From Antedon mediterranea (taxonomy: Eukaryota; Animalia; Echinodermata): DNA of 64,000 nucleotides. Positions 1 through 61,608 of this stretch are shown piece by piece (position 1 is the first letter of the stretch; each line of letters opens with the position of its first letter). The notes under the pieces are model-generated. The model ran no database searches, had not been told where the DNA came from, and saw only the letters and a program-made list of their open reading frames with translations. Position numbers and translations under genes: made by a program. The stretch spans positions 3,426,422-3,490,421 of the forward strand of contig NC_092678.1 of the NCBI RefSeq assembly GCF_964355755.1, in the 5' to 3' direction.

Positions 1-96
1 TTCCAGTGCAATTGGATAAACCAATCTGTTGTATTATTTTTATCTTGATATTGTTTGACTAATCATTACATTATTCGTGTTCATGTTTGATTTTAG

Positions 97-15000: not shown

Positions 15001-16133
15001 AATATTTGGGGTTTAATGGTATGGCACCCACCCTGCCAGAGAGAGGTTAAAGGTTCAACTCCTGTCACATGACCTATACTTATGAATTTGAATGTTTTGT
15101 TTAAAATGTAGCAGGGTTTTCATTGTGTGTGCTTATGTATAAAAATATTACAAGACATAATGAATATATAAGTTAAAGTAAATATTTTCTATCTCTCAAC
15201 CAGCATACGGATGCACATCGATTGCTCTTTGCCAAAGAGATTCCAACATATCGCAATCTTGTGGATTCCTTCTACAAGAGTATTCAGAATATGCGGGAAT
15301 TGGATCACATGGAGATGGAAAGACAAATGAAAGAAACATCAAACGTAAGATTCAATATCAATTGAAACAATTTTTAAAGGATAAACAACTTCAACTGGAA
15401 AAATTAACTTAAAAAACACACATTTTTATTTTAAAGATGTAGTGTCCCCAAAAACATGAAAAATGAAGATTAATAAAATCAGACTTTGAAGAGGTTATTT
15501 TGTAATTTTATAAGGTTTATCATTTCCATAGAAACAAAAACAACAATAAAAAAGACAAAATAAATTGTTAACTTCAACCAAAATCACATTTGCTGGCAAC
15601 CAATTTACTATTTTTTTGTTTTAAATTACATTGTTTTCAGGTAAATATTTTTTTTAAAACCAATTTTTGTCAAAGTGTGTAACAATTATGTGACAATAAA
15701 ATAGCATATTCAATAACAATTTTTAAAGAATTATATTTTTTCAGGAGGACAATACATTTTTAACATTTTCTGCTTGTTTTTCCTTTGTAGAAATTTCAAA
15801 GTATCTTTAGTAAAAAGAGTATACTGGACCATTTGTATTCTTATGCTAAGAGTTGCAATACAGAGGTGAGTATAAAGACATTTACTTATTACTTTGTTGT
15901 GACACAAAGATGACCCCTGACACAAAGGTGACCCCTGAATAGGTGTTTTTCTGTATTACATATGTACAGTACAAGCTTACAATAAGAAATAAGAACATTG
16001 CATTCAAATTCGGTGACTAATTAATATTATGATTTGTTTTCAGTTAAGTAAGGCTGTGGAAAATGATGACTCGTGCAGTAGAAGTCGGATCGGGTTCAGA
16101 CTGGAGCAAATTCCTTCTATGATGGGTACATAA
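97..16133 (+). CDS. PLXN: Plexin (semaphorin receptor), 5'-partial, multi-exon: PSI/IPT ectodomain, TM helix, split RasGAP-like domain with RBD
   Basis: GT-AG exons (approx.): 97-256, 762-858, 3133-3244 (PSI CSECVKGWEACRWCVEDNVC), 3923-4030, 4870-4959, 5284-5368, 5632-5795 (PSI DCSRC..CVWC), 6162-6329, 6596-6704, 6994-7129 (IPT PELGIQAGGTTVNING), 7426-7590, 7790-7874, 8341-8595, 8978-9121, 9445-9664 (TM), 9940-10072, 10360-10481, 10645-10709, 11309-11382 and 11601-11667 (VLRR-NEGVTEKLLSNW), 11940-12086, 12346-12499 (RBD VKVLSCDTINQAKEKILD), 13151-13254, 13424-13509, 13593-13693, 13999-14091, 14315-14480, 14825-14972 (RFWVTVINNP), 15204-15344 (LLFAKEIP), 15791-15865, 16044-16133 (stop TAA). 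The Sema domain must lie upstream of the window. Subfamily not assigned. Confidence 0.95.
6362..6515. repeat. 34-bp minisatellite (about 4.5 copies) in a plexin intron
   Basis: gtaatagagtatcccacaatgcaatgttgcactt at 6393, 6427 and 6461. Confidence 0.85.
10968..11282. mobile_element. Long-palindrome repetitive element in a plexin intron
   Basis: About 80-bp arms centred on cgaggcaaagccgag (10968-11140); a degenerate relative lies at about 14665-14800. Confidence 0.7.
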
Positions 16134-16524
16134 TGCTCTACAATGTTGGAATTGTTGCAAAAGGTATCACAATGCATAGTAGTTTTTGAGCATGTGCAGA
16201 TATTTAATTATGCTTTTATAAAAGTTTAAAATAAAATTTGTATATGTGCTTAATATTGCAGTGGTAAATAAGAAATAATAATCATGGTAAAGTTGATACA
16301 AACCAAGAAAGAATTAGCACTTTTGAATAAAGATTTACAAAATAAACTAAATGCATAAGCAGTGTACGTTTATAGAATCAAGCAGGTTAATCAATAGATT
16401 TAAAAACACATTTTTAAATACTGCCAGAATTATTACATAAATTTATGTAAATTTGTTCAACAAAGTTTAAAATAAAATATTAGATAGTTATAGAATATTT
16501 CTTTATTAAAGTTAATATTACCAT

Positions 16525-18136: not shown

Positions 18137-18533
18137 AACGCTTGGTTCTCACTAGAACGTAACGTAACGCAACCTACGCAACGTAAGAAAATGCCCTTTA
18201 AATAGGGCCTACTTGTGTTTGCCCCCGCTTGCGTGAAATCAAACCGATGTTTGCAGAACTGTTGCGTCGTCGGTTCACATTTGTCTAAAGCTTGGTTCCC
18301 ACTAGAACGTAACGCAAGGACGTAAACGCAACGCAAGCGTTTTAACCAATGACAAGCGAAGTTATAGACAGTTAGCAATCACAAGCGAATAAGCCATCGC
18401 TTGTGATTGGTCAATTCACTTGCGTTGCGTTACGTCCTTGCGTTGCGTCGCTAGTGGGAACCACGCTTACGCAACACAGCACTTTGCGTCAATACGTTAA
18501 TATTGCGTTGCGTCGCTAGTGAGAACCATGCTT
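18137..18533. mobile_element. MITE family B (TIR aagcttggttcccactag): one element with a second nested inside it (18288-18468)
   Basis: Outer ends cttggttctcactag / ctagtgagaaccatg enclose inner ends cttggttcccactag / ctagtgggaaccacg. Confidence 0.85.
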
Positions 18534-18941
18534 AAATAAACGTGGTTGTTTTCTTTCATCAGGCCCGAAAGACAACATTTATATAACGATCATTGTCAAA
18601 TTATCCGAAAAAATTTCTTTCAAAGAATCAAACGATGTAAGATTTGAGAAAACAGGTACTATGTTTATGTAGTCATAATTCTCATAGTGGTTAAGAGGTA
18701 GGCCTATTCTTTACACATGGTGGCCCAATTGATTAATACTTTATTATACTAGGGCTTAACATCAAATAAAAAAGCATTTGTAATATAAAGAACTTTATGA
18801 TACTTTTACAATTTATCAAAATTGTTTATATCTTATACGAGGAATACTTTCCCCTTATTTGGTTACAGCGATGTGAGCTGCCCCTGCCCAGCATTTTTAT
18901 AATGTTGTATTGTAGACGGTCTTCGATGCCTTTTTGAGAAT

Positions 18942-19123
18942 AATGCTTGGTTCCCACTAGCGACGCAACACAAGGACGTAACGCAACGCAAGTGAATTGA
19001 CCAATCACAAGCGATGGCTTATTCGCTTGTGATTGCTAACTGTCTATAACTTCGCTTGTCATTGGTTAAAACGCTTGCGTTGCGTTTACGTCCTTGCGTT
19101 ACGTTCTAGTGGGAACCAAGCTT
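18942..19123. mobile_element. MITE family B copy, inverted relative to 18288-18468
   Basis: Near-identical to the reverse complement of the inner copy. Confidence 0.88.
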
Positions 19124-19313
19124 AAAGCGTTACACGGGCAATTAAGCAATGTAGACAGTAGCCTGATCAAATCTCTATTTTGTTTTACTGTGTACTGAAG
19201 CATAATAATAACCTTCGCTGTTCTATTTTGTAAGAGGTAAAATGGTCACAGTCACACTCCAACACAGTTTATCCTCTACGTCCCTACTGATAAAATAGGA
19301 TAGTCGATGTTGC

Positions 19314-19385: not shown

Positions 19386-22300
19386 ATGAACCGACTTGCA
19401 GTAATTGTCTTGGCTGTGGCAGTTTTTGCTACTCTCGCCGAAGCAAAGAAATTTGCTAAAAAGGAGGAGGAGGTAGGCTTAAGTTCTTATAATTATCTTT
19501 TTCATTACTCACATGAACCATTGTATAGAGCCTATACTTACTGTAATCATCCACAAGGTTGATTACTGATACATTTTATTAATGTTTTCCTTTTTTTGTT
19601 CAGGGCCTCTCGAATGAACACTTGTGTATTGTTGAATGTAAGTAGTAAACTGAATCTAATACCTGTAATAATCATAATGATTTTGATCGCTGTTGAATTT
19701 CATTAATATAAAACTTGCTAAACATCGGAAACATTGCATACAATGAAGGTATTGCAAACGCCGAGATTAATTTATATATGTATATATATAGTAATATTAA
19801 TCAATAAAATATTAAACGTCTATTATTTTAATATATTTCCACAAACAAAACAAGCACAAAGATACAGATACAAAATTGCTTGCTTGTAGAATTAAAACAA
19901 AATAGACACTGAAATTATACAGTATAAAGAATACAGGCACGGTGATACAGGAGTATGCCTATTAACTTTATCTTCCTTCTAATATAAATAATGTCTCTCG
20001 GCACTATATATCCATTTATAGATTTGGGTATATTAGTTAGTTAGTTATCTTTTTGATTATATTATAAGATGATGCCCGTCCATTGGACGGGTAAATACTA
20101 ATAGGCCTATATATTATAATAATGATGATATTGAAAATAATGATGATGTTGAAAATGATGCTGCTGATGACGACGAAGATGGTGATGCTGTAATAAATAC
20201 AAAAACTTAACAAGCAAGTTTACTTTTTATCCAAGGCATGTGTAATGTATTTGACGAAGACAATAACGATTATCCAGTCGATTGTATGCCAAATGCATGT
20301 GAATATTCTGAAACACCTGAAAATTGTTGTAATGAAGATGAAGCCAATGGCTGGTTTTTCTATATTTCTGCTACGGGGGTGTGTTTTGATATCAAATGTC
20401 AAGGAAGTAAGTTTAAACATGAATTGTTCCATGGTTTAAAGATGAATTTACATGAAACTCGAACAAATATATATATATTTTAATTGCTCATACCAAAGAA
20501 TTATTTCTTGATGTGTCTAAAACTGTTTCTTCTCCCAGAAATTAATAGTGTTCACAGCTTTAACCAGTGTTTTGAATAATTTAACGAGTAATGTTTGTTG
20601 TCTTTGTTTTGTTGTTCTCTAGATGCTGCTGGCTGGGAAGAAGCATGTGGTAGGTATTAGGTATTGTTGTCAATAATATTAAAAGTCACGAAAGAAAATT
20701 TACGTCTTAAACGCCCATTAAATGTGCATGCCAGTGTAACTCCATCTATCAGGTTCAATATACATACTCCGAACGCTTATGGAAGTGTATTAGGCCAACG
20801 GTGGGTCATTGCGTTGTTCTCTCATGGCCCCCTCACTCTTTTTTCGACGGAAAACCCCAGAACTTGTTATACGTATTCTGTAGTGTTGTTTATTACTTCG
20901 ATACTGTGTACGTAATAAAAGGTTCTACTTGGCCAAGAGCTATTATTAATCTTCTAAAAAACATTACCAGTAGGCCTATCATTCCATTTGTTTTTTATGA
21001 TGTTGGTGAGAAGAATAGGCCTAATTTAGTAGGAAATAGATATATATATATATATATTTTGATATCGCATAAGCGACCATAACTATATTAATGTACAGCA
21101 ACGCCTACACTAGCAGATTCTCTTCGGGTAGTGTTTTCGGTGATGGGAAATTCCTTCTAAAACATCATCATACCACAACGTAGTCGTGATATGCAAATGG
21201 TTAATTATTGCTGAGGGCCTAAAGCTGAAGATTTACTAAGGTTCATACGAAGTTTTTAGTCGCGTGCAACTCGACTCTACAGCCCACTATGTCAGTCGGT
21301 TGGTCGGTCGGTCGTTAAATTAAGCCTAATACATAACTTGATGGCTTCGGTTATGTAGATCTACAAACCATAGTTAAAGTAAGTTAATATGCATTAGATG
21401 ATGTATTAATGTAAACATGTATGAAACTACGCTGATCATAATTGATGAAATAAAAGTTTTGGAAAAATCACAATAAAAAAAAGCTGAAATTAAATTAAAA
21501 TCATATAACGATGGCCAATAGAGCGTTTTCAAGTATGAAACGTCCGTTATGTCAATTCATTGTGCGGGGATATTGGGACGGGCTTTGCTCATCCTACCTG
21601 AACACAGTTTTGACGGTGCGACATCGTTTGACCTGACCTAGTTACGTCATTGGTCGTCGCAAATCGCAAGGTTTACCTCCTCAATAAGTAATATTATAAA
21701 GATGTTTTCTTTTCAATTAAAATTATATTAGGCCTATTTCATAATGATATTGAGCTTTTCACAAGATGAATATACTGTTTTTATTTTTTAAAGAATGTAG
21801 GAATGACATTGTCAACGGCGCAAATGGTACGTATGCTTTTATTTTTGTTTAATTTTTTTAACATCAAGTATTAATGGTTTTTTGCCAGTGACATGGAGAC
21901 GAGCATGAAAATATTAATACATTAATTCAATTTCAATATTGATATCCGTATCATAAATTTAAAGAAACCTTTTGTTAAACTGATTGATTATATTTACTTG
22001 AAGAGTATATACTTAACATTTTACGGCATCTTATAATATTAAATTTGAGTGTATTGTGACTGGATTTTGTGTGTGTTTTACTGCTATAATAAATATATTT
22101 ATTATTGATTGTTATACTTTTTTAAAGAAGGTTACATTTTCATAACTTCATATTTATTTTTGCTTGTTTTTTTGTTGCTAAAAATAAAGGGAATGAATGC
22201 ATTTCAATGTAAATTAAATGAAAGCTTGTTTATACAACGTAGAATTACAATACTAAAATAAGGCATTCTATGCAATATTAACATTATTATGATTAACATT

Positions 22301-26743: not shown

Positions 26744-27159
26744 TAGAATTCAAGTGTTAGAGAGCCTTTTTTTTTTTTCGTTTTATTTTTAAATTTTTGG
26801 AACTGTCATGTTAAATACTATGGGAAACGTTCACATAACTGTTGGTAATATAAGTTATTCTTTTGTTTGAAATTCTGAAAGAAATCTTCCGGATAATTTA
26901 AACTAAAAATATTGTTATTGAAATCACTACTTGTAGATAACAATGATGCAGCAGATTATTACATTTTATACATGGGTAAACAGGCAAGTTTAGTTTGTAA
27001 CGTAGACATTAATAACTCAATAAACATACCTATTCAATAATAGAATCACCTGACAAGAAACATATATAATATACGTGCGTAAGAAGTTTCAACGCTTTAG
27101 CATATTTTTACTTCTTGATATCAATAAGCAGACGCTTAGTGAAACAATAAAAAGTAAAG

Positions 27160-30100
27160 ATGAACCGAGTCGCAGTCGTTATCTTGGCTGTGGCAGTGAT
27201 TGCCACACTCATCGAAGCAAGACCAAATCTTGCTAACAAGTTAAAGGTGAGTTATCCTTCTATTTTTACCGTTAGTGGGAATATCTTTTCTGTCTTTTTT
27301 ATTTGTTTGTTTGTATTATGCATTACATCGTGATGTAAATCTAAACATTGATAATGTTACTCTATCATCTAAACAAATATCCTTTTCTCGCTAGCTACCT
27401 GCTGATTGTTAAAAGCGCTTTATTGATATGACTACATCAATAACATACTCGCATTTCTAGTGTATTGTATTAAATCATCAAAGTAATATTGATACTAAAC
27501 ATACAAAGTAAAATACGTGATTTCCGGATTTTGAAAAAACTAACGGGAAGCTTCGATTATATTCCGTACTATAATAGTTTGGTTCATCGAGTGCACTCTG
27601 TAGAATTTGTGTTTTGTGTTTAATATACACCGAGTGTAACCGATGGAGGAACTCTCACGCAAAGAAACATTACAAACTAGGAAGGTATAATGAGGCATTC
27701 TATATACAGGTGTAAACTGTCATGCCACTCAAAGAAAACCCAAATTTGTGACTGCTTTTCTTTCGGGAGGGTATACTGTATTTACAAAAAGATTTTATAA
27801 AATAAAGCAAACTATTTATGCTTATATTTTTTGTTTTCAGAGTAAACGTGGAAAGAAATTACTAGAAAGTAAGTTTTAACCAAAATGGCACCATTATCTT
27901 AAAATTAATGTTCATTAAACAACCTATTAATATTTAAATAAATCACAAGACTCTCTAATGGTAAAAATGTAACATCTGTATTTAGAAAGAAAATGTATAC
28001 TTGTCTCATTTTGAGGCATTAGGTTCTGTCTCATGACATAAATCAAGATTTACCAATGCCCTGTTGACTGTAAAACAAACAACTTAACAATTTCTACGAT
28101 GAAATTAATTGATAAAACATTTTTAAATAAAAGGTTTATAAAAGATTCCAATACAAATACAACAAATAATGATGAAAAATATTATTTTAATAAGCTACCT
28201 TCTTGGAAATATTTTGGAGGCCACTAGAAATAAAATCACTAAATTATGTAACAACTATAGTAAAAATCTAAACATTTACATATTATTAAAAAAGGAATTG
28301 ACAATTTTTTTCTCAGTAATAAAGACCCCATTTTCTTTGATCTTAAATCCAATGATGTCTATCTATTAAATTCTGAGAACTGTGACGCCTCTAACGTCGA
28401 GGAAACTTCGCGACATCTAAAGATAAGAATCCATAAGAGTAGGGATTAAAATACACATATAGTACAAAGATATTAATTAGTAATAATAGAGAATTGTCTA
28501 GATCACAAAATACTTACCTGTATAAAAATGTAAGACCGTATTTCATTGCAGTGATGATGTTATTCGGCGTAACAACGAAACATTTTTGCTAACATTTTGT
28601 CATAACTCAAGTTTTCTTTTAATGTTGCTATGCTTTCGAAAGTTCGGAAACATTATTTTACATTACTTTAAACACTTCGGTGTCAATCAAAGACTTACAA
28701 ATGTTGGAAAAGCTCTTGAAAATCAAGTAAAAGCAGCTGATGTAAAATACATTCAAATAAATATTGTTATTGTTTTTTTTATAGTTTCTCAGAGAAAGAA
28801 AGAATGTAAGTATACAAAAATAGTTACCTTCAATTCAGTTTGCATTGAAGAATGCACCAATAATGATTTTCAAAAGCAGCATAAAACTGAATTAGTTAAA
28901 GACATATACAATCTTGTTATATTATTAATTGTTAATATTTTTTAATTTGTTATAATAATAATTATTAATTTCGCTAAACTAAACAATGAATTTTCTTCAC
29001 GTTTCTTGAATGCTGAACTATAAATTATTCTGATACTTAATGATTTGATTATTTTTTTTAAAACTTAAAGTAGCCGAGAAAAAAGATGTTTGTAAGTATA
29101 TCTTCTTTTTATTTATTGTTCTTATACAATCCGCAAAAATCAGAATAATAAACAATAATAAGCTTTATTTATTCATGGACACTTAACTCAACTAAAAGTT
29201 GTTTTTCAGTATGTAATAGAATGGTATACATCAACTTTTTGCGCTCGTATTTTAACGTACGTGCATGTTGCGTTTGCGTGGATTTTTAAAATTTAAATGT
29301 CTGTGAAATTTTATTTATCACAAAGGTCATCTATAATTCATGACGAAATTAATTTTAGCTTGAAAGTAAAGTTATTTGTGATTATTTTTATTTTGATTCT
29401 TTTAAGAATGTTTCCAACCTAGGCCTAGTTGTTTAGTATTTTTGAAGTTTATAATTTAAAAAAAAAAAATGTATGTGACATTTAAAGGATGATAAGGCTA
29501 ATTTAAAATAAAACGTGCTTTTTATGGTGTTAAATATAGGCTAAACATTGATTGTTTGGTGTCGTTTGTTAACACACTTTTATAGTGAATAAAAGAATAA
29601 ATAATATTATCAAAGAACTTATGATATTATCTACTTGCATGGGCAAGTGATCTGTTATTGTATTGTCAAATTCTATCTTAGCATTGGATCTACTGTATTA
29701 TACTGATTATTTTTACTGGAAGTTTTTTTAGACGGCCCTTGACAAATGTTCGAATTTCCACGCCACAAGCCGTGAAACCCCCAGGACTTATGACACAAAT
29801 TATGATAACATGTTTTGATTATGAAATTTAAAATTAAATTTGATTATGATTATTTTCACAGGGAGCGATGACGACTTCGATCTTGGTAAGTCTTTAACAC
29901 ATTTCCACAATGTTTATTTAAATCTATATGAAGTAGGGTAAAAGAATGCACAATAATAAAGTTACTTTAAAATAAAAACGTGTTTTATATTATTTCCAAA
30001 GATGACAAAAAATAAGTTTATTAACTCAAATTTCATAGTGATAATTAATTATAATAATTAACCTGCAAGTGATGCTACCGTATTGTTGAATAGATGAAAA

Positions 30101-33100
30101 TTATAAATATTGTGGAATGATGAATTTTATTAAAGGTAAACGTTCTTCCTAGATGGCGTATGGTATAACAATCACAAACAATTTCATGATAAATAAATTA
30201 GGCATAAACATTAAAAAAATATATTGTTAATAATAACTTACTTCGTATACCATATCCATAGAGTTATTTCTTTATCATCAAACTCATTCCAAAATTTTGG
30301 GATATTGTTGGATAGTGACATTTAAAGGATGATAAGGCTAATTTAAAATAAAACGTGCTTTTTATGGTGTTAAATATAGGCTAAACATTGATTGTTTGGT
30401 GTCGTTTGTTAACACACTTTTATAGTGAATAAAAGAATAAATAATATTATCAAAGAACTTATGATATTATCTACTTGCATGGGCAAGTGATCTGTTATTG
30501 TATTGTCAAATTCTATCTTAGCATTGGATCTACTGTATTATACTGATTATTTTTACTGGAAGTTTTTTTAGACGGCCCTTGACAAATGTTCGAATTTCCA
30601 CGCCACAAGCCGTGAAACCCCCAGGACTTATGACACAAATTATGATAACATGTTTTGATTATGAAATTTAAAATTAAATTTGATTATGATTATTTTCACA
30701 GGGAGCAATGAAGACTTCGATCTTGGTAAGTCTTTAACACATTTCCACAATGTTTATTTAAATCTATATGAAGTAGGGTAAAAGAATGCACAATAATAAA
30801 GTTACTTTAAAATAAAAACGTGTTTTATATTATTTCCAAAGATGACAAAAAATAAGTTTATTAACTCAAATTTCATAGTGATAATTAATTATAATAATTA
30901 ACCTGCAAGTGATGCTACCGTATTGTTGAATAGATGAAAATTATAAATATTGTGGAATGATGAATTTTATTAAAGGTAAACGTTCTTCCTAGATGGCGTA
31001 TGGTATAACAATCACAAACAATTTCATGATAAATAAATTAGGCATAAACATTAAAAAAATATATTGTTAATAATAACTTACTTCGTATACCATATCCATA
31101 GAGTTATTTCTTTATCATCAAACTCATTCCAAAATTTTGGGATATTGTTGGATAGTGACATTTAAAGGATGATAAGGCTAATTTAAAATAAAACGTGCTT
31201 TTTATGGTGTTAAATATAGGCTAAACATTGATTGTTTGGTGTCGTTTGTTAACACACTTTTATAGTGAATAAAAGAATAAATAATATTATCAAAGAACTT
31301 ATGATATTATCTACTTGCATGGGCAAGTGATCTGTTATTGTATTGTCAAATTCTATCTTAGCATTGGATCTACTGTATTATACTGATTATTTTTACTGGA
31401 AGTTTTTTTAGACGGCCCTTGACAAATGTTCGAATTTCCACGCCACAAGCCGTGAAACCCCCAGGACTTATGACACAAATTATGATAACATGTTTTGATT
31501 ATGAAATTTAAAATTAAATTTGATTATGATTATTTTCACAGGGAGCGATGACGACTTCGATCTTGGTAAGTCTTTAACACATTTCCACAATGTTTATTTA
31601 AATCTATATGAAGTAGGGTAAAAGAATGCACAATAATAAAGTTACTTTAAAATAAAAACGTGTTTTATATTATTTCCAAAGATGACAAAAAATAAGTTTA
31701 TTAACTCAAATTTCATAGTGATAATTAATTATAATAATTAACCTGCAAGTGATGCTACCGTATTGTTGAATAGATGAAAATTATAAATATTGTGGAATGA
31801 TGAATTTTATTAAAGGTAAACGTTCTTCCTAGATGGCGTATGGTATAACAATCACAAACAATTTCATGATAAATAAATTAGGCATAAACATTAAAAAAAT
31901 ATATTGTTAATAATAACTTACTTCGTATACCATATCCATAGAGTTATTTCTTTATCATCAAACTCATTCCAAAATTTTGGGATATTGTTGGATAACGTTT
32001 TTAAATTTAAACTTTTCAATATTTTCTGGTATTATGCGGTAATTAATATTTAATTGTGTTATCGACAAAACAACATTTTTTCTATGCTTATACCTTTTAA
32101 ATAAAAAATCCAATACTGTTCAATCGAATTAAAAGATGGGCCATATATAACGATTATACAATAATTATAAAACGTAATGATATAAGTTAATTTGAATTGT
32201 TTATGATTATTTTCACAGGATCGTTGTCCGATATTCCCGGTAAGTCAGATTTTTATTGTATCTAAATTAGGTCTATCTATACAACCACAACAGCGACATT
32301 TAGCAAAGTTTATGTCAAATAACTGCCAGACACATTCTTTGTAAAATGATCGGGTTAACGATACATTCACCCACGGAAATGGAAGAAACTATGATTACTT
32401 TCACATATTTTCCGTCACATATGTCATAACGTAGCTTAAGCAAAAAAACAAAAAAAATGTTAGTGTACCATTTTTATGCATATTAGGATATACTGATAAT
32501 AAAATTATTTATTTAGGTTCTTTCAAAGATGTTTAAACTGTCAATAACTTACTAAGATTAGTTGTATGTACTTAATTGTGTTAAACTACTGTGGAGTAAC
32601 TATGCGTCAGGGAGTTAATTTGTAAATACATTGAGAACAAGTTGTTCTTCGGTTGGACGCAAACCCACGACCTCCAGTGTTCTCAATGTACTTAGTATGT
32701 ATTTCAATGTTTATTGAGAGACCTCTAATAAATTTATCAGCATCTTTCAATTTGTTTAATAATAATAATATCATGGATTTATATAGCGATATATATATAA
32801 ACCAAATCGAAGTAAGGGGATACGCATTCGTCGCTAACCAGGGATCGGTCTAATTGAACTCCGGTTTAAAGGACCTAGATCTAAATTAGAATAACGATCG
32901 TTTTGAGGCAAATCAGTAAAGTAACAGTAAAACTGTACATGGAGTTAATTTTTATTAATTATTTAAATAAAGACTACTGTTGCACACATAATTGTAGCAC
33001 GCAGACGGCTATGTTTGTTGTAATATTCAATTGACTTTTCAGTGACGTGCATCCATTACATTATAATCGTGTTATGTTGTTCAATACGACCATTACTTAT

Positions 33101-33803
33101 TATCATTTTCTCTCTATGTTATTATGTTATGTAATACATCTATCGAATCAAAATTTGTTAAACCATTGAGAAAAACTATTTGTTTTTTCTCCATGGTAAA
33201 CGCAACGTGAACTTATGGACAAGATGAGTTTGCATATTGTTTACAGTGACAATAAATCCATATACTTGAAAAGCATCAATAGATTTTTAAAAGATAGCAA
33301 AACTGATTAGTTTGAGACATGCGTATACAATCTTTCGTTATAGGCAGCATATATTGCTAATTTTATTTTTGTTTGATTAATCACTGTTAATTTATATATA
33401 TACATTATCTTCACGTTTTAAAAGCTGAAATTTACATTATATTTTTACGTAATAAAAGTCATTAATATAATAATCTGATAAAATTGGTTTATGATTTTAC
33501 AGAAAATGCTTTGAGGCAGTCGCGAAGTCAGCCATTGTATTTAAAAAAAAAATTTTTGTGCCACTGTCGCCAATAATTAACAACGTTCGATTAAGTATAT
33601 AATTTTCCATTACTTATGAAACCGCCGGCGTGTGAATGTAGATTTTACTATTTATTTAAAAAATAACTACTGTTTGTTTGTTCGTTAGAAAATTCCCATT
33701 TATAAAATAGCAACTGTTAAACCACCATGTGATAAAGTTAATTAAAATAAGAAATTTCAGGGCCGTGGATGAACGTAATGTAGGCAAAAAATGAAATGTA
33801 TCC

Positions 33804-33835
<32 letters not shown>

Positions 33836-34544
33836 GTATTAGTGTTATTATTATTATTATTATTATTGAGGGGCACATTCATTGAAATAAGAAAATGAAT
33901 TGAAAGTGTTAAAAGTTAATTTGTAATAAATGTTTTTTATATTACTTTCACAGGTAAGTATTTCAGTATGTCCATACTGTAGTGTAAGCAACATGAAATG
34001 AAATGTAACTATCTCTTATGCCTATTATAGATTTTTAAAAAGTTTTAAAATGTCGTGTAGCCTATTAATATTATTAATATTATTAAGGGACCTATTCATT
34101 GAAATAAAAAATTATTGAAAGTCATAAAAGTTAATTTGTAATAAATGTTGTTTATATTACTTTCACAGGTGAGCAGTCGTACTCGTGTAAGTATTCCACG
34201 CATTTCCATACTGTAGTTTAAGCAATACGAAATGATATGTTACTATCGCTTATGCCTATTATAGATAAAAAAAAGAAGTTTGAAACGCAATGAAATGTTG
34301 GGTATCCTATTATTATTATTATTATTATTATTATTCTGGGGCCTATTCATTGAAATAAAAAATGAATTGAAAGTGATAAAAGTTAATTAACTATACCAAC
34401 TGAACAGCTAGGCTCCTCTTATATTATTTAATTGATTAATTCCTGTCACCCATTGATGTTTCTTCGTTTCGTATTGTTTATTTGACCAGCATATTTTAAT
34501 AGATCATTTCATTGAAAATGAATATGACACATAATACTCATAGC

Positions 34545-34611
<67 letters not shown>

Positions 34612-37600
34612 CGAGGGGCCTAACAATTATGGATGAATCTTCGAACTGTGATTGTGATTGGTGAATTCACTTACACGCATGCTAAAGCTTTAAAGTTTTA
34701 CCGAAAAATTACACAATAATTTATAATAATCAGAAAATCAAATAATCGTCCAATCAAATTACAGATTAGTCATGCGTCATAATAAATAGATACAATTGTT
34801 TTCATGTTGTATATTGATCTGTCAACTGATGAGTAAACAATAATGAAATATCATTAGATCGTTAATAATACGACTTGGGGCAAGCTTAACGCAAATGAGC
34901 CAGTTGAACCCCTCATGTTAAATAAAAACATAAAAAAGGAAAACAAAAGTAATTAATAAAATAAATTTAAAAAATGTAATTTCTGACTTTGTACTATTCC
35001 ATCATTTGTTCTTGAAAATGGATCCATTTTTTTATTATATTGTAGGCCTAAATGTTTTGTATTATTATATCTATGAAATCAAAATCTGATAAAATTGGTT
35101 TATGATTTTACAAAAAATACTTTGAGGCAGTCGTGAAAACATTTTTGTGGCACTTTCGCGAATAATTACAACAAATGAGTTTCTATTACTTATCAAACCG
35201 GCGCCATGTGAATGCATTTTGCTATTTATTTAAAAAATATTAAATTTATTAATATATGTAATACTATTTTTGGTTCGTTAGAAAATTCCCCTTTGTTTTA
35301 AAATTTTTATTATCGTTTTGATAATGATTTACCTTCAATAATTCAGGTTGCATATTGTTTACAGTGAAAGTAAATCCAGATACTTGAAAAGCATCAATAT
35401 GATTTTGAAAAGCTAGCAAAACTGATTTGTCTTGGACATGCGTATATAATCTTTCATTAGAGCGGCATAAAGCCTACTGCTAATTTTATTTTTATTTAAT
35501 TAATAATTTTAATTACCAGTTTCACTGTTAAAAAACATTTATATACATTGTCTTCACGTTTTTGAAAGCTGAAATTGACGGTACATTATATTTTTACGTA
35601 ATAAAAAAGAGTCATTAATATATATTTTTTACATACAGTAGCCGAGGACAAGAAGACCTGTAAGTATAGTCTATTTTATTGTGGCTTTATATGAACATTA
35701 AAACTTTGTTTGAATGTAAAATTTTTGTAGGCCTAACATTTTTAACTAAATTTTGAACTAAATATATATAATTTAACTTTCACATGGTCGTCATCCTGTT
35801 CTTAGTATTTTAAGTCATGTTTTAAGGGTCTTTCATACCTATTTCGGCACAGTTCCGGTAAGTATTTCACGCATGTCCATACTGTAATGTAAGCAATACA
35901 AATGAAATGTAACTATCTCGTATGCCTAGTAGTATAGATAAGTTTAAAAAGTAATGTCGAGTATCCTGTTATTATTAAGGGGCCTATTCATTGAAATAGT
36001 AAATGAATTGAAAGTGATAAAAGTTAATTTGTAATAAATGTTGTTTATATTCTTTTCACAGTGGGCTTGGTGTGGTTGTGTAAGTATTTCACACATTTCC
36101 ATACTGTAGAGTAAGCAATACGAAATGTAGGCTAACTATCTCTTATGCCTATTATAGATAACAAAGTTTAAGACGTAATGTCGAGTATCCTATTATTATT
36201 GAGGGGCATATTCATTGAAATAGAAAATGAATTGAAAGTGATAAAAGTTAATTTGTAATCGATTTTGTTTATATTACTTTCACAGTTGACTCGTACTTTT
36301 CGTCATGGTTGTGTAAGTATTTCACGCATTTTAATACTGTAGTGTAAGCAATATGAAATGAAATGTAACTATCTCTTAGTATAGATAAAAAAGTTTAAAA
36401 AGTAATTTCGAGTATCCTATTATTATTGAGGGGCCTATTCATTGAAATAGAAAATTAATTGAAAGTGTTAAAAGTTAATTTGTAATAAATGTTTTTTATA
36501 TTACTTTCACAGTAATACTGTAGTGTAAGCAATATGAAATGTTATTGTTACTATCTCGTATGCCTATTATAGATAAAAAAAGTTTGAAACGAAATGAAAT
36601 GTTGAGTATCCTATTATTATTATTATTATTATTGAGGGGCCTATTCATTGAAATAAAAAAATATTCAAAGTGATATGTAACTATCTCATATGCCTATTAT
36701 AGATAAAAGCGTACAATGATTTAAAATAAAATGGGGTTTATATTATTTTCATAATAATTAATTTATGGAATTCGGACTAATGAGATTATAATTAAATTAT
36801 TAACCTGTATGGGAGATTGATCCATATTGTCAAATTATAACTTAGCAATTGTTACCGATTATTTTTTACTAACGGTTCCATTTCTTACGAGGCCTTTTGA
36901 TAATTGTTTTGGCTTCTGCCACTGTAACCTATGAAATCTCCTGAATTTTCTACACAAATAAACTTGTGAAAAATATCATAACATTTTTGATAAGGAATAA
37001 TTTGAAATAAGTTGTTTTATGATTTTTTTCCACAGCGGAACAGCCTCCTGTCCGTAAGTTTTTAACACAACAAAAGTGACATTTTATCATGGTTCTAAAA
37101 TAACGTAAAATGAAAATGGGGTTTATTTTATTTTCATAGAATAATTAATTTATGAAATTCGGCCTAATGAGATATAATTAAATTATTAACAACTTGCATA
37201 GGCGATTGATCCATATTGTCAAATTATAACTTAGCAATTGTTACCGATTATTTTTTACTAACGGTTCCCTTTCTTACGGGGCCTTTTGATAATTGTTTTG
37301 GCTTCTGCCACTGTAACCTATGAAATCTCCTGAATTTTCTACACAAATAAACTTGTGAAAAATATCATAACATTTTTGATAAGGAATAATTTGAAATAAG
37401 TTGTTTTATGATTTTTTTCACAGCGGAACAGCCTCCTGTCCGTAAGTTTTTAACACAACAAAAGTGACATTTTACCATGGTTCTAAAATGAACGTACAAT
37501 GAAAATGGGGTTTACATTATTTTCATAGAATAATTAATTTATGGAATTCGGCCTAATGAGATATAATTAAATTATTAACAACCTGCATGGGCGATTGATC

Positions 37601-40600
37601 CCTATTGTCAAATTATAACTTAGCAATTGTTACCGATTATTTGTTACTAACGGTTCCCTTTCTTACGGGGCCTTTTGATACTTGTTTTGGCTTGTGCCAC
37701 TGTAACCTATGAAATCCCCTGAATTTTCTACACAAATGAACTTGTGAAAAATATCATAACATTTTAGATATGGAATAATTTGAAATAAGTTGTTTTATGA
37801 TTTTTTCCACAGCGGAACAGCCTCCTGGCGGTAAGTTTTTAACACAACAAAAGTGACATTTTACAATGCTTCTAAAATAACGTACAATGATTTAAAACAA
37901 AATAGGGTTTATATTATTTTCATAGAATAATTAATTTATGGAATTCGGCCTAATGAGATATAATTAAATTATTAACAACCTGGGCGAGTGATCCATATTG
38001 TCAAATTATAACTTAGTAATTGTTACCGATTACTTTTTACTAACGGTTCCCTTTCTTATGGGCCCTTTGATAATTGTTTTGGGTCTATCGAATAAAAACC
38101 TGTTAAACCATGGAAGACAAAAATCTTATGATTGATGAATTCACTTACGCGCAAGCTCAAGTTTTATCGAAAAATGACATAATAATTAATAACTATTATT
38201 GTTGTATTAAAAAAAAAAAGGTTTTTAAACAAAGTTATAATAATACTATATTATCATAATATTAATATTTTCTTTTTACAGTTCCGAACAAGAGGAATGA
38301 TGGAGGTAGGTTCACCGCGTTTATAAATATAAACTATTTTTCTTCCATGTTATTATGTAATACATCTATCGATTAAAAATCTGTTAAACCATTGAAGTAA
38401 AACATATTTTACTCCAGTATTTTTTACTGTCCTAGTCAAACATTAACGGAACTTATTTAAACTTCAGAAAATTAAAAAAAAGTAACAGATTAATCATTCA
38501 CGATAAATATATACTATTATTTTCATGTTGTATAATTGTTCTGTCAACTGATAATGTAAACAATAATGAAATATCATTAGTTTGTCAATACTCATGTAAT
38601 ATTTATCATAATTCATAATCAGTAAAATGATAATAATTCATTTTGAATTTTTTTTATATACGAGAAAACTTAAACTGCATAAGGCATTATGGTAAAATGA
38701 TAATAATTCATTTTGAATTTTCTTTATATACGAGAAAACTTAAACTGTATGAGGCGTATAATAATGATAATTATTACACTTTTGTTTACAGGTTTTGTTT
38801 ACGAAGGCAGCGGCGATGGTAAGTTGACGTTTTTACTGTTCTTCTGTTCATGAACCGCTTCCTAACTTATTTTCTGAAACATATTTTATCAACTGATAAA
38901 AAAATATAATAAATTACTTATAAATGTGATTTTTTAAATGTTGTGGGGAAAGCATCATTATGTTTGAATATAATTAATAATACAGGCTGAATAAATTAAA
39001 ATAAAATAAATTTGATTATATTGTAAACAAGTTATTAGAAAAATCACAGATTTATTACTTTAACTATATACAAACTTAAAACAGATTTTAAAGAAACCTT
39101 ATTATTAATAAATCCAATTACAAGATGCGCATGCGTCATATAATATATACTGTTATAATCACTTAACAATTACAAGATTGCTAATGTAAGTGTAATTCAA
39201 TATATTTTCGTAATACCATTACAGTATTAAGTTTTACTATAATAAATAATACAGGTTTAGTACTGTAATAATAATTTATTAAAAATCAAATCAATAAAAT
39301 ATAAAATAAATTGTACCTGCAATGTATGTATTATCATATCATGTTATATATCTTTTTATATACGAGAAACTTAAACTGCACGACGCATAATAATAATTAT
39401 TAAACTGTTGTTTACGAAAGCAGCAGTTGCTGTTCTTCTTTTCATTATTCCGGCTTAGTCCTGTTACTAACAGTACTAACAGTAAATTTATAATTAATAC
39501 ATTTAAAATATAACACAATTATGCTTGAACTTGAAACACAGAAATGTGTGGATACAAAATTATCTTGTAATATGTTGTATTATTACCATTACCTATTGAA
39601 TAAATCTTATTGAACTTTAGAACATTGAACCAATACCTCATACCTCATTGCTAATGTAATATAATATAAATAAAATATTTTTGTAATAGTATCATTATAT
39701 TTGACATAATTACTAGTTCAGTATAGTAATAATAATTTTTTATTGTTCTCATAAAAAAATTAAATATACCTGAAATTGATGTATTATTAATAGCATGTTA
39801 TTTTAATTATAATTCTTTCACACACTATTTTTTTTTTTACAGTTTTTGTTGATGAAGGTAAGTTTTAAAACAGAATTTATCCCCAGCTTCATGAACAGTT
39901 TTTGTTTTGAATGAGTTATACGATTGAAATAACAAACAAAATGGTATTTGGCACTGTTTATGCACTGATTCTGCTTACTGTAGGCTTATTTCACGCTTGG
40001 TCGCAATGCAAAGACGTAAGCGCGCCGCAAGTAATTAAGCGTGGTACCCACTAGCGACGCAACGCAAGGACGTAACGCAATGCAAGTGAATTGACCAATC
40101 ACAAGCGATGGCTTATTCGCTTGTCATTGCTAACTGTCTATAACTTCGCTTGTCATTGGTTAAAACGCTTGCGTTGCGTTTACGTCCTTGCATTACGTTC
40201 TAGTGGGAACCAAGCTTTAAGGGATGGATATTGTTTGCATGTGACTTTTATTTATCCATAAGAAAGAATTACCAAGTATAAAAACATCAATATGACAGAA
40301 TGAAATATGAACATAAAGGAAGGCGAGAAAAACTACATGCCTATCGAGCTCAACTTCCAAAATTAAAAAAAAAAGAAATGACATTTCTTTTAGAATATAT
40401 CAAGCAAATCATGTAAGAATTAATTAATATCAAAGTGCAGTAGTTATTGAGTATAATGCTTTATTTTTTTTAACTTTTTAGATGTTCGAGATGGTTCTGG
40501 CATGGGTAAGTTAAAAACTTTATTAATACTATAAAATGTTTATTGTAGTTTTTTTTGTCTTGTGTGAGTTCATCTCACGTTTATTTAAATTCTCATTGAT

Positions 40601-42964
40601 GAATATATTATATACATATAGGTAAGTTTTATTGTAGTTAGTGATAATTCATTATTAATCAAAGTAAATCGTAAGTACGAATATTTAGCAATTTGTACGC
40701 CCTGCATCCACTCCACATCCAGTAGGCTTATAAACAGTTCCATTAAACTGTTTTAAACTTTATTGATATCTATCATGTTTATAATTAGGCCTAAAATAAT
40801 TGTGTGTGTTAAAAGCTTTAACAAAATCAACAAAATCAAATTACAAGCTGCGCCGTATAGATACTATATAATAGTCATGTTTTCTTGTAATTTATTTTTT
40901 GCTGGTGGTATGGTACTATACTTTTACTTCTAAAATATACACTTTTTAAATTATTATTACCAATAAAAAAGAGAAGTGGGTGTTTCTTTTTCAGGAAGTT
41001 GACATATATGATTTATCTGATAATGATACAGTCAAATAATAATGTTAATAATTGTGTTGAATTGACATTATCATAATATAACCATGTTATTTGTTTTTTA
41101 TTATAGGTGATATGGAGGAGAGGGATGATGGTAGGTTTATGTTTTTTTTATTACAGTATATAGTTTTAGACGGTTTTGGGGTTTTTTCTTCTTATAAATA
41201 CTATTTGTTATCATGTTGTAAAATTGCTCTTTAACTGATAAGGTAAACAAGAATAAAATATTATTAGTTTGTCAATACTAATATTTACCATAATTATTCA
41301 ATTAAAAATCAATTTTATTTCATTTCCACATAGTTTTTGTATACTAATTTGTAGATGCAGTTTAAATAATGTAGTTGACTAATGTTTCATAAAGTAGTAA
41401 TGATTTTGAGAGTTTATTATTTTCGTATTTTAACAAAGAAAACAGATTGAAAACTATTGATATCAAATATATTTAATGTTTAAATTTAGAAAAGATTGGT
41501 TTGGTATGGGCTCGATAAGTTGATTTAAAACAAATACGAAGCGCTTTTTTCTGTAATTTAAAAAGATGGTCCAACTTTGTAGTTACCGTAGTAGTCCATG
41601 GCCATTGGAAATGTTTATTTGTAACAGTTCCCCATAACAAGTTACAATACGACAAATACGGAAAGAACCATGGTATTATAATGAAAAAAGAATATTTGTT
41701 GTTAAACTATATTTTTCTCATTGCTCCAATATTTCTTGATTTTTAGTTAATTGCTGTTTCAAGTTAAATTGGGTGTCAATTGTGATTCTAAGAAAATTTA
41801 AATGTTGTTTTTCTTTAATTAAAAGATTATCAATTTTGATTTTAAATTATTATTCCCTCGGACGTGTCTTCTGTCACTTAAAAAATATAAACGTTTGTTT
41901 ACAGGCAACGTTTCCACTGGCGACGACGCGGATAGTCACGGCAAGTTTGATTTTTTTAACTGTTTTTCTTTTCCCGAGCCACTTATGAACTTCTGAAATA
42001 TAAATTGTATTTTACCAAAAATAACTGTAATTTTCAATATATTTTCGCGATTGTATATTTAGGTTTGAATAATATTATAACTTAAAAACCCAAGTAAATC
42101 CAACTTCCAATTTATATTCTGTATTTTATTTACTCATTTGTTTTTGAGAATGGTTCCATGATGGTTCCGAAACGTCGATCTTTTTTCATAATTCCGGTTC
42201 AGTTCTGTAATAATAATTTTGAATTGTTGATTTGTATGCCCACCTCCACCAACAACAGGTTTCAATTTTTGCAAGTTAAATTTTACCTTAAATTGTTTTT
42301 ATTACTTGGGTAAAATGTTATATATATTATCAAAATATACAAACAGAAACAGTTCAATGAACATACTTGGCCGAGATTAAATGTTAGTTGCCATGTGCGT
42401 CATAATAAATTAATATTGACCAATCACAAACTGAACTGTTGCTTGTGATTCGTCAACTCATATTGTGTTTTGCCTACCTCATTGAGTTGCGTCCAGTTAT
42501 ATGTAAGCGTTAACAGCTCATCAATTAAAAAAATGTTGCTTGTAATTTGTGTCAAATATGACAAAAAAACATCGTGAAAAATAAAATTGTCGGTAACTTA
42601 TATTTTCATTTCAAATTAAAAATAATCCTTCGATTTATTTTGAATATTACAAAATTATAATTTTAAACATCTTTAATAAACAATTAAGTTTATTAGGACA
42701 TCGATTGATTTAGATTGGGTGGAAAGTGTAATATTGTCACATTATTGTAAGAGGTTACGTTATTTATTTGTATACTTATACTTGATATTAATAGGCAATG
42801 TAATAGGCAACAAGAAGACAAAGAAGGTTGCTCGTATGTTGGCGGCTAAGAAGATGATGGCGGCTAAGAAGATGATGGCGGCCAAAAAGGCGTTGGCTTC
42901 AAAGAACTTGCTGAAAGAGTTGGCTAAGAAGCGAGCCATGACCAAAGCCCTCAAGAAAAACTAA
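27160..42964 (+). CDS. Microexon-built secreted protein (about 235 aa if all exons are used), paralog of the 19386-23311 gene
   Basis: Exon 1 27160-27246 (MNRVAVVILAVAVIATLIEARPNLANKLK) and exon 2 27841-27868. Then 19 phase-1 exons, all multiples of 3: 28785-28805, 29071-29091, 29862-29885, 30702-30725, 31542-31565, 32219-32239, 34169-34186, 35639-35659, 36062-36079, 36286-36312, 37036-37053, 37424-37441, 37813-37830, 38282-38305, 38792-38818, 39843-39857, 40482-40505, 41107-41130, 41905-41940 (GC donor). Last exon 42795-42964 (KKVARMLAAKKMMAAKKMMAAKK...). The full join has no stop codon. Confidence 0.82.
29475..31994 (+). repeat. Three tandem 840-bp copies, each carrying one 24-nt microexon
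   Basis: Line-by-line identity at period 840; the only differences I found are at 30707 and 30712. Confidence 0.95.
33780..36705 (+). repeat. Family of about 225-bp intronic units (ggggcctattcattgaaat...ttactttcacag [exon] gtaagtatttcac...) in two clusters, with interspersed (ATT)n microsatellites
   Basis: Units recur near 33870, 34087, 34338, 35978, 36202, 36429 and 36635; (ATT)n tracts at about 33805, 34311 and 34547-34610. Confidence 0.85.
36710..38085 (+). repeat. About 3.5 tandem copies of an approximately 388-bp unit carrying the 18-nt EQPP(V/G) microexon
   Basis: Exons at 37036, 37424 and 37813 (spacings 388 and 389); the flanks are nearly identical. Confidence 0.92.
40037..40215. 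mobile_element. MITE family B copy in an intron of the microexon gene
   Basis: aagcgtggtacccactagcgacgc ... ctagtgggaaccaagctt. Confidence 0.85.
41400..41760 (-). mobile_element. Degenerate LINE (L2/CR1-group) reverse-transcriptase C-terminal fragment
   Basis: PYLSYCNLLWG...LFKLQKKALRIC..YRAHTKPIFSK is typical of the end of non-LTR ORF2; it is frameshifted. Confidence 0.75.
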
Positions 42965-43379
42965 AAGGGCATTAATAGCAAAGATACAAGAATAAAGTGT
43001 ATTTGATTGATATATGTTTAATCATTGGTGAATGGTGATGGGACCTTTAATATATAGGCCTACATTTATTCTGGCCACATTCGATATTCTTTCATCCTTA
43101 AGATAATATTTAACAACTTACATGTTTTAAATTGAGTTTATTTTTACAAAGTGTATTCATTATACACAGAAAGAGTGATATTCATGGAAACTTGTGAAAA
43201 TAACAATAAGAATAAAAACAACATTTTTAAATATGTACTATCTTATCTTTTAATAAACTTTATGCAGGCATTAATACTTTGTGTATATTGTTTTTCTAAA
43301 TTATGTGTACAATAGAACGACTTACAAATTGTGTATTTAAAGAGCAGGCAAAAAAATGTGCATGTTTGAGGGTGGGGAA

Positions 43380-48710: not shown

Positions 48711-48751
48711 ACTTAAATTAAAAGGTTAGGAAAGCAATGGCCTAAAATAAT

Positions 48752-49655
48752 TGCCTCTTGTTCATCCTTTTTCTTTTCATTCCATGTTTTTGATGGTCTG
48801 CCTCCTCTTCTTTTTTTTTCATTCCATGTTTTTGATGATCTGCCACCTCCTTCTTTTCTTTTCATTCCATGTTTTTGATGGTCTGCCTCCTCTTCTTTTC
48901 TTTTCATTCTATGTTTTTGATGGTCTGCCTCCTCTTCTTTTCTTTTCATTCCATGTTTTTCATGGTCTGCCTCCTCTTCTTTTCTTTTCATTCCATGTTT
49001 TTCATGGTCTGCCTCCTCTTCTTTTCTTTTCATTCCATGTTTTTGATGGTCTGCCTCCTCTTCTTTTCTTTTCATTCCATGTTTTTGATGGTCTGCCTCC
49101 TCTTCTTTTCTTTTCATTCCATGTTTTTGATGGTCTGCCTTCTCTTCTTTTATTTTCATTCCATGTTTTTCATGGTCTGCCTCCTCTTCTTTTCTTTTCA
49201 TTCCATGTTTTTCATGGTCTGCCTCCTCTTCTTTTCTTTTCATTCCATGTTTTTGATGGTCTGCCTCCTCTTCTTTTCTTTTCATTCCAAGTTTTTCATG
49301 GTCTGCCTCCTCTTCTTTTCTTTTCATTCTATGTTTTTGATAGTTTGCCTCTTGTTCATCCCTTTTCTTTTCATTCCATGTTTTTCATCGTCTGCCTCCT
49401 CTTCATCCCTTTTCTTTTCATTCAATGTGTTTCATAGTCTGCTAGGCCCCTTCATTCCTTTTCTTGTCATTCCATCTTTTTCATGGTCTGCCTCTCCTTG
49501 TTCATTCCTTTTTTTTTCATTCCATGTTTTTCATGGTCTGCCAACCTCTTCTACATTCCTTTTCCTTTCATTCCATATTTTTCATGGTCTGCCTCTCCTT
49601 TGTCCATTTTCTTTTCATTCCAAGTTTGTTATGGCCTGCCTCTTCTTCGTCCCTT
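48752..49655. repeat. 42-bp minisatellite, about 20 copies with degenerate ends
   Basis: Unit ttttcattccatgtttttgatggtctgcctcctcttcttttc; it generates the MKRKEEEADHQKHG and PPLLFFSFHVFDGL ORFs. Confidence 0.95.
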
Positions 49656-50385
49656 TTTCAGATTCCAGAGACAGATAATTATCAATGATTTTATGCAAAT
49701 GTATTTGGAAATATCCCACAAGAGGAAAAATAATGCATTTTGTCATAAAGATATAGGCAACCTATATCATAGTTCCTTGACCTTTATTTAGTTAGACATG
49801 TGGTTTGTTTGTTTTAGGCATGTGTCTTCCCCTTCTTAGGGATATTCCACACTTGCACTCAGTATTTTTTATTTAACCAAGTCAATTTCCTATTTTTCGC
49901 TGTTTAATCCATATAATTATAACTCACAAATTTATTTTGTGCCACTGAAATTATATGATGGTTATGGTTATTACAGTATTAATAATTTGGTTTTTATTTT
50001 AAACATGTTTGTTTTATAGTATAGCCACACCTAGAATTTATATGCATGATTATTATTCAGGATATAAACAATTTCCAGTGTTTACCATTAATTCTGACCA
50101 ACTAATTAGACTTATTTGTTATTTAATTTGTATGTGTACTACCGATGTTTTGCAACTTACAACTTAGAACATAAATGCAACAATACCACACCCACTCCAT
50201 CAATTAATGATCAGAAACAAATAAATGAAAAAGTATCCAGAAAAGATTGGTTGGCTATATTTTTCATTTAAATTTGCTGACAAAGTGTCATGTATTGTAA
50301 CTTTACGTTTATACTAGTACTTCATAGTATTTGATTTTATGAAATTTATTTGATAGCATGATTATAATTTTTGTTGGTTTTATTT

Positions 50386-60721: not shown

Positions 60722-61428
60722 CATCATCATCAACATCAACAACAACCACCATATCCTCCTTCTCCTCATCATCATTAACATCAACAACAACCACCATATC
60801 CTCCCTCCTCCTCATCATCATTAACATCAATAACAACCACCATATCCTCCCTCCTCCTCATCATTATTAACATCAACAACAACCACCATATCCTCCCTCC
60901 TCCTCATCATTATCAACATCAACAACAACCACCATATCCTCCCTCCTCCTCATCATCATCAACATCAACAACAACCACCATATCCTCCCTCCTCCTCATC
61001 ATCATTAACATCAATAACAACCACCATATCCTTTCTCCTCCTCATCATTATCAACATCAACAACAACCACCATATCCTCCCTCCTCCTCATCATCATTAA
61101 CATCAATAACAACCACCATATCCTTTCTCCTCCTCATCATTATCAACATCAACAACAACCACCATATCCTCCCTCCTCCTCATCATCATTAACATCAATA
61201 ACAACCACCATATCCTTTCTCCTCCTCATCATTATCAACATCAACAACAACCACCATATCCTCCCTCCTCCTCATCATCATCAACAACAACCACCATATC
61301 CTCCCTCCTCCTCATCATTATCAACATCAACAACAACCACCATATACTCCCTCCTCCTCCTCCTCATCATCATTAACATCAACAACAACCACCATATCCT
61401 CCCTCCTCCTCATCATCATTAACATTAA
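60722..61428. repeat. About 46-bp minisatellite, about 15 copies, downstream of the Kazal gene
   Basis: Unit acatcaacaacaaccaccatatcctccctcctcctcatcatcatta; its length is not a multiple of 3. Confidence 0.92.
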
Positions 61429-61608
61429 CCATTGCAAACTCAAAATATGACAACATAGTCTCATCTTGTCATCGAAATTACCATTCCGATACCAATCTTG
61501 TGTTGAGTGGTCACTATACGTTTCCTTAATAGACCAGACCACATTTATACCATCTCATTCAACCAATTTTTGTCTCTACAAATATTATTACCTTATTGGG
61601 TGCTGTAC

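Follow-up and report, generated by a model that had tools for sequence, protein, structure and literature searches.

Micro-exon genes and the Antedon locus

Micro-exon genes built from repeated exon-intron cassettes have been described mainly from parasites and plant-feeding insects, for which conflict with the host is the accepted driver. In the polymorphic mucins of Schistosoma mansoni (SmPoMuc), the unit of the ~1-kb tandem genomic repeats is a 27-nt exon together with the introns on either side; these introns are >93% identical and the exon types differ. Gene conversion of the introns and selection keeping the exon differences were invoked by the authors (PMC2576457). The schistosome micro-exon genes (MEGs) combine a signal peptide, 10-20 very short symmetric exons, long introns, paralog clusters, a high ratio of nonsynonymous to synonymous substitution rates (dN/dS) and exon-skipping variants (PMC4350168, PMC10526429), and are apparently restricted to platyhelminths (PMC4350168). 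The present study deals with a predicted 22-exon micro-exon gene of the crinoid Antedon mediterranea, located in a 64-kb stretch of genomic DNA (the window; coordinates are positions within it), with all gene parts on the + strand. The gene is read here as a set of homologous exon-plus-intron cassettes that grew by tandem duplication, some exons having been diversified by selection and the flanks kept alike by recombination between repeats, a reading to which we assign a probability of roughly 0.55.

The Antedon gene resembles SmPoMuc in that micro-exons are tandemly repeated with their flanking introns, which are >93% identical in two arrays (100% in the 840-bp array, 93-96% in the 388-bp array) and less so in a 227-bp family (76-91% of flank columns), and in that exons differ where introns are alike in the 227-bp family and the 840-bp array, not in the 388-bp array. 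SmPoMuc has one cassette type with up to about 20 repeats in a multigene family of a parasite, whereas here a single gene of a free-living echinoderm contains at least four families of cassettes that differ in age; moreover, exon lengths shift (27, 18, 0 nt), exons become unalignable and the core is Asp/Glu-rich. The likeness is one of design, with no relation in sequence expected. With MEGs the gene shares the architecture of very small symmetric exons carrying most of the coding sequence; its start looks signal-peptide-like by eye. Unlike MEGs, it belongs to a crinoid, and a search of longer proteins with its basic tail found none of 667 candidates at E<=0.001 or E<=10, which is weak evidence because of the segment's low complexity and involved no direct comparison with MEG sequences. 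As to systematic skipping and high dN/dS, in the sequencing runs used, X1 (possibly the assembled sample itself), X5 (organism A, another sample, RNA by guess), X6 and X8 (both organism B), one X5 contig is apparently without E21, and two exons compared with organism B show no excess of change.

Three further systems offer partial parallels. In ASSET (PMC2474615), intron segments are highly similar among copies and exon segments distinctly different, as here, but these segments form part of ordinary exons, in separate genes whose fold is conserved; whole micro-exons of one gene are concerned in Antedon, with no sign of a toxin. Argiope MaSp2 silk genes likewise have repeated, homogenised introns within one gene, but their exons are also homogenised, and large (PMC9779670). 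Aphid bicycle genes share many micro-exons, secretion and very fast coding change, but number in the hundreds and carry CYC motifs (PMC9168663), whereas the Antedon gene has no cysteine (count 0). By analogy, the Antedon gene would work like SmPoMuc- or MEG-type genes and probably evolved independently. Among the main texts of open-access papers listed, none was found to describe an echinoderm gene of this type, and the crinoid case suggests a general, repeatedly evolved way of varying secreted proteins.

Gene architecture and homology of the cassettes

The gene model was built by hand from AG..GT/GC boundaries, and the same method applied to a neighbouring paralog reproduced the structure of its RefSeq protein. 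All 19 internal micro-exons (E3-E21; Table 1) are 15-36 nt long, multiples of three and in phase 1, and micro-exons make up 421+ of 708 coding nt (about 60%). An automatic scan of 28785-41107 returned candidates that were multiples of three in 19 of 19 cases, against 4 of 15 outside the gene (exon 2 set aside); two of the 19 contained in-frame stops and were omitted from the model. In-frame stops also ruled out the alternative exons 33954-33983 and 36513-36524. Because every internal exon is a multiple of three in phase 1, gain, loss or skipping of a cassette keeps the frame, and only 2 of 210 exon-skip junctions create a stop.

The 840-bp and 388-bp cassettes had been proposed, from a first reading of the DNA, to share ancestral intron sequence around unrelated exons, with similarity due to AT content as the refuting outcome. 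Flanks were compared by local alignment after removal of the generic last 30 nt upstream of the exon, with 500 dinucleotide shuffles per test. The upstream flank of the 840-bp cassette scored 47, 49 and 39 against the three 388-bp copies, the shuffles giving means of 21-22 and maxima of 34-37 and reaching the observed score in 0/500 cases each, which excludes AT content as the cause. The GC content of the window is about 30%. The upstream introns agree at ~76% of aligned positions over ~230 bp (58-59% of columns including gaps), and 15 of 16 nt match downstream of the donor; thus, homologous DNA lies both before and after the exons. The exons themselves are unalignable, their global score of -14 being no better than that of shuffled sequence (p 0.68, 0.77). 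All 12 intron motifs quoted in the earlier note lie at the expected places, the six of the 388-bp series being a composite of different copies. Furthermore, the 840-bp unit is itself dimeric, consisting of two ancestral 388-like units of ~400 bp, the first of which lacks an exon; this exon-less half scores 82 against the 388-bp intron (shuffle maximum 60). The alignments support descent of the two cassettes from one ancestor.

For the exon at 32219 (E8), claimed to have the same acceptor context, agreement extends over the last ~26 nt of the acceptor; the remainder scored 20, a value reached by 318/500 shuffles (237/500 downstream), so that its homology to the 840-bp and 388-bp cassettes may be called weak. 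A possible dead relative of E8 was observed at 33503-33523, with a similar acceptor, a donor one base short, an unrelated 21-nt stretch between them and only short flank similarity.

Exon divergence and its explanations

The earlier note had gone on to conclude that exons evolve faster than introns in a sustained manner. This was assessed by a simulation calibrated on the flanks, with A/T, G/C and CpG site classes and indels included, and by a window test comparing the match level of the exon with all same-width windows of the flank. An excess of exon change holds up in one family, is suggested by two comparisons and is missing from two others, and the pattern is episodic rather than sustained. 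The clear case is the 227-bp family, which the earlier note had not mentioned. Its five acceptor-bearing cassettes have exons of 0, 18, 18 and 27 nt, one having been deleted together with its donor, and 3/3 exon pairs, which are not independent, match less well than all of the 118-130 same-width flank windows (simulated P 0.0002-0.024). The copies of the 840-bp array differ at just two of 840 nt, 30707 (D>N) and 30712 (D>E); these two CpG sites lie in the 24-nt exon E6, and each difference alters an amino acid, giving P 0.0008-0.010 when they are counted as two events. A Fisher combination of the five comparisons with conservative values gave P 0.0009.

Several results weigh against the proposed diversification by selection. 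For 840 versus 388, 12-15% of same-width flank windows match as poorly as the exon, and the pair is borderline after CpG/GC correction (simulated P 0.013-0.077). The two E6 changes stand 5 nt apart, yield P 0.03-0.10 as one event and are carried by no listed contig. The V>G change previously noted in the third 388-bp exon is present, but this array has no exon excess (variable columns 2/18 in the exon vs 29/365 in the intron, p 0.44); the two letters of E15 recur in an X5 contig placed on the second 388-bp copy, and X6 and X8 also show one of these letters. The E4/E10 pair (29071/35639) shows no excess either (exon 0.62 vs flank 0.63, P 0.29-0.60), and without the 227-bp family the combined P becomes 0.066. 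Against organism B, exon 1 has at least 2 changes in 87 nt, with at least 20 other letters over a 448-nt piece, and E20 has at least 1 change in 24 nt, with at least 22 over a 436-nt piece, neither indicating an exon excess. In addition, the 18-27 nt exons are unalignable, which makes dN/dS impossible; the splicing evidence given below is limited to two micro-exons, cassette exons not being among them, from a run that is RNA by guess; and no homolog, family or structure backing the predicted function was found.

On the present data, fast exons are indistinguishable from homogenised or constrained introns, and the likeliest alternative, though an improbable one, is that the flanks are slow: the 100-230 bp around each micro-exon would hold splicing signals under purifying selection, and the exons of a disordered protein would drift nearly neutrally with the frame kept. 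Conserved flanks of micro-exons are a general finding. The detectable 840/388 homology is strongest beside the exon, and against the 388-bp intron the exon-less half of the 840-bp unit (51-53% of 255 shared columns) falls below the exon-bearing half, which scores 134 (58-60%), but this could merely reflect an earlier duplication of the exon-less half (60% identical to the other half). Moreover, the upstream flanks of dead 227-bp cassettes are as alike as those of live ones (all 10 pairs differ by 5-12 mismatches over ~99 nt), and flanks do vary, by 9-24% between copies and by about 5% from organism B, with many indels.

Somewhat less likely still is the replacement of whole exons in single events, through gene conversion or recombination involving another cassette or a gene copy at some other genomic site, whereby a few events would mimic many substitutions and selection need only tolerate them. 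Patchy similarities would fit such events: one part of E12 is similar to E9 and the final 7 nt of E12 to E11, E8 combines an acceptor of the 840 type with unrelated flanks, a 227-type donor flank begins at 35858 after unrelated DNA, and the closeness of the two E6 changes is of the same kind; exon exchange between clusters was also proposed by the SmPoMuc authors (PMC2576457). Yet the window holds no donor copy of any cassette exon outside its own family, and the neighbouring paralog has only the first and last exons in common with the gene. Chance with mutation bias is the least credible explanation, namely that GC- and CpG-rich exons of 18-27 nt mutate faster than AT-rich introns and that a few small samples were chosen post hoc: flank difference rates do rise from 0.075 at A/T to 0.14 at other G/C and 0.23 at CpG sites, exon GC is mostly 41-72% vs 26% in the 840-bp intron, and 2/5 comparisons lack an excess, but E9 vs E11 still gives P 0.0002-0.0005 or lower in the class-calibrated simulation, and the combined P stays as low as given above.

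For duplicated cassettes with selected exons and recombining flanks, the following course of events may be proposed. The tandem arrays, the dimeric unit and the dead cassettes point to unequal crossing-over, which would both create and remove cassettes. Stages of three ages would coexist, with 840 as the young one, 388 and 227 as intermediates and 840 vs 388 as the old one, the flank identities within this one gene falling into classes of 100%, ~95%, ~85% and ~75%, plus dead copies; the flank tree of the 227-bp family does not resolve (support 50/74). Exon change would be episodic and driven by selection, comprising amino-acid changes, in-frame indels and up to full exon loss, while recombination between repeats likely keeps the introns similar. 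With this range of identities, the dead copies and a second assembly, fast exons versus homogenised introns become directly testable in one locus.

Predicted product, splicing and neighbouring loci

Table 1. Coordinates of the predicted micro-exon gene, its cassette families and the neighbouring paralog
Feature	Position	Strand	Remarks
Predicted 22-exon micro-exon gene, 235 aa	27160..42964	+	signal-peptide-like start, basic N-terminal part, acidic core, basic tail; open frame, 0 internal stops
Exon 1, hydrophobic signal-peptide-like segment, phase 0	27160..27246	+	79% identity to exon 1 of neighbouring paralog
Exon 2, 28 nt, phase 0 to 1	27841..27868	+	
Micro-exon E3, 21 nt, basic	28785..28805	+	
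Micro-exon E4, 21 nt, E10 paralog	29071..29091	+	added by hand; acceptor tract weak
840-bp array, 3 copies	29475..31994	+	E5 29862-29885, E6 30702-30725, E7 31542-31565
Micro-exon E8, 21 nt	32219..32239	+	only last ~26 acceptor bases in common with 840-bp cassette
227-bp family, first cluster	33775..34388	+	zero-length cassette 33953/33954, E9 34169-34186 (18 nt)
Micro-exon E10, 21 nt, E4 paralog	35639..35659	+	divergence of exon not above flanks
227-bp family, second cluster	35858..36675	+	E11 36062-36079 (18 nt), E12 36286-36312 (27 nt), cassette at 36513 without exon or donor
388-bp array, 3.5 copies	36710..38082	+	E13 37036-37053, E14 37424-37441, E15 37813-37830 (V>G)
Micro-exon E16, 24 nt	38282..38305	+	
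Micro-exon E17, 27 nt, acidic Ser-Gly motif	38792..38818	+	
Micro-exon E18, 15 nt	39843..39857	+	related to 5' part of E17 (shuffle p 0.004)
Micro-exon E19, 24 nt, second acidic Ser-Gly motif	40482..40505	+	joined to E20 in run X5; skipped in organism B contig
Micro-exon E20, 24 nt	41107..41130	+	joined to E19 and last exon in run X5
Candidate micro-exon E21, 36 nt, GC donor	41905..41940	+	added by hand; apparently absent from X5 contig
Last coding exon, Lys/Ala/Met-rich basic tail	42795..42964	+	
Tandem paralog, 7 exons, 195 aa	19386..23311	+	RefSeq XP_071960554.1, uncharacterized singleton; sequence equals hand-read seven-exon model

The predicted protein begins, as read by eye, with a short basic stretch followed by a hydrophobic stretch, both in common with the paralog. 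Charges are strongly partitioned along the chain, with 12 K/R vs 4 D/E after the signal-like segment, 34 D/E vs 6 K/R in the 127-residue core and 19 K/R vs 1 D/E in the tail. Two D/E-x-S-G sites occur, and Ser-Gly in an acidic setting is a criterion for proteoglycan cores (PMC2134808). From amino-acid composition, the product might tentatively be taken as a secreted, largely unstructured polyampholyte of a matrix or surface coat. Its two acidic Ser-Gly sites could be attachment points for glycosaminoglycan, and its variable exons would tune binding. A literature search for a comparison with casein/SCPP proteins gave 0 papers. A cationic amphipathic antimicrobial helix in the basic tail was rejected (best 18-residue hydrophobic moment 0.35 vs 0.44 in shuffles, p 0.81). 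Pfam returned nothing above cut-off for four exon peptides and the paralog, Atlas gave no usable match, Rfam had 0 matches in 27000-43300, and five short peptide terms had 0 matches in the main text of a crinoid neuropeptide paper (PMC9793003).

A more far-reaching and unlikely idea is that a free-living echinoderm independently evolved a schistosome-style generator of diversity. Symmetric micro-exons would then be hypervariable slots in recyclable intron frames, rewritten, resized or shrunk to zero length with both splice sites surviving, and combinatorial skipping would yield a secreted recognition protein that varies and serves immunity, contact with symbionts or the recognition of gametes. 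If so, the cassette families of different ages would provide a time series of exon turnover in a single gene. At the zero-length exon 33953/33954, an intact acceptor AG is directly followed by a GTAAGT donor, which could serve as a recursive splice point.

Splicing is seen for E19 and E20 only, in the presumed RNA run X5. One of its contigs joins 40505>41107 (joint given as 40504>41106) and 41130>42795, both with GT..AG, whereas an X1 contig runs continuous and unjoined across E20 (40591-41480); ~140 further letters of the X5 contig are unplaced. The joining of E20 to the last exon is accompanied by a bin depth of 9.0 vs 26.2 expected with E21 included. A contig of organism B (joint 40448>40895) omits 446 nt containing E19, and an X8 contig has different letters before the E16 donor, suggesting an altered E16-like exon. 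An assembly artefact is unlikely for the 840-bp array, since X1 has one exact 840-nt contig at 4.0x the depth of seven unique contigs, a depth that is not a copy number, in a run that may equal the assembled sample. Organism B is without cover at 30246-30786 and has one contig across the right end of this array (31389-32783), which would fit a single cassette, and the last exon is uncovered in X6, but missing cover is no proof.

Around E17, a decayed copy of the exon without acceptor or donor was observed at 39405-39445, and E17 begins with sequence similar to its own acceptor tract, which would fit an origin by a short local duplication. A ~185-bp inverted-repeat element, similar to a miniature inverted-repeat transposable element, occurs in near-identical form at 40035-40221, within an intron of the gene, and at 18285-18469 and 18939-19127, and is present at very high copy in all four runs compared.

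The tandem paralog upstream has the same first exon and basic tail around a Cys-rich acidic middle, and its Cys-rich domain (20236-20406) matched only the paralog itself among 1.84 billion representatives. A neighbouring open reading frame matches with full identity an NCBI protein of Antedon mediterranea, a feather star. Elsewhere in the window, 1-16200 holds a multi-exon plexin-like gene, as judged by eye from translations of the open reading frames. Finally, 48713-49680 and 60722-61429 hold a 42-bp repeat with a charged, open minus-strand frame of 223 aa and a tandem array of 46-bp units.

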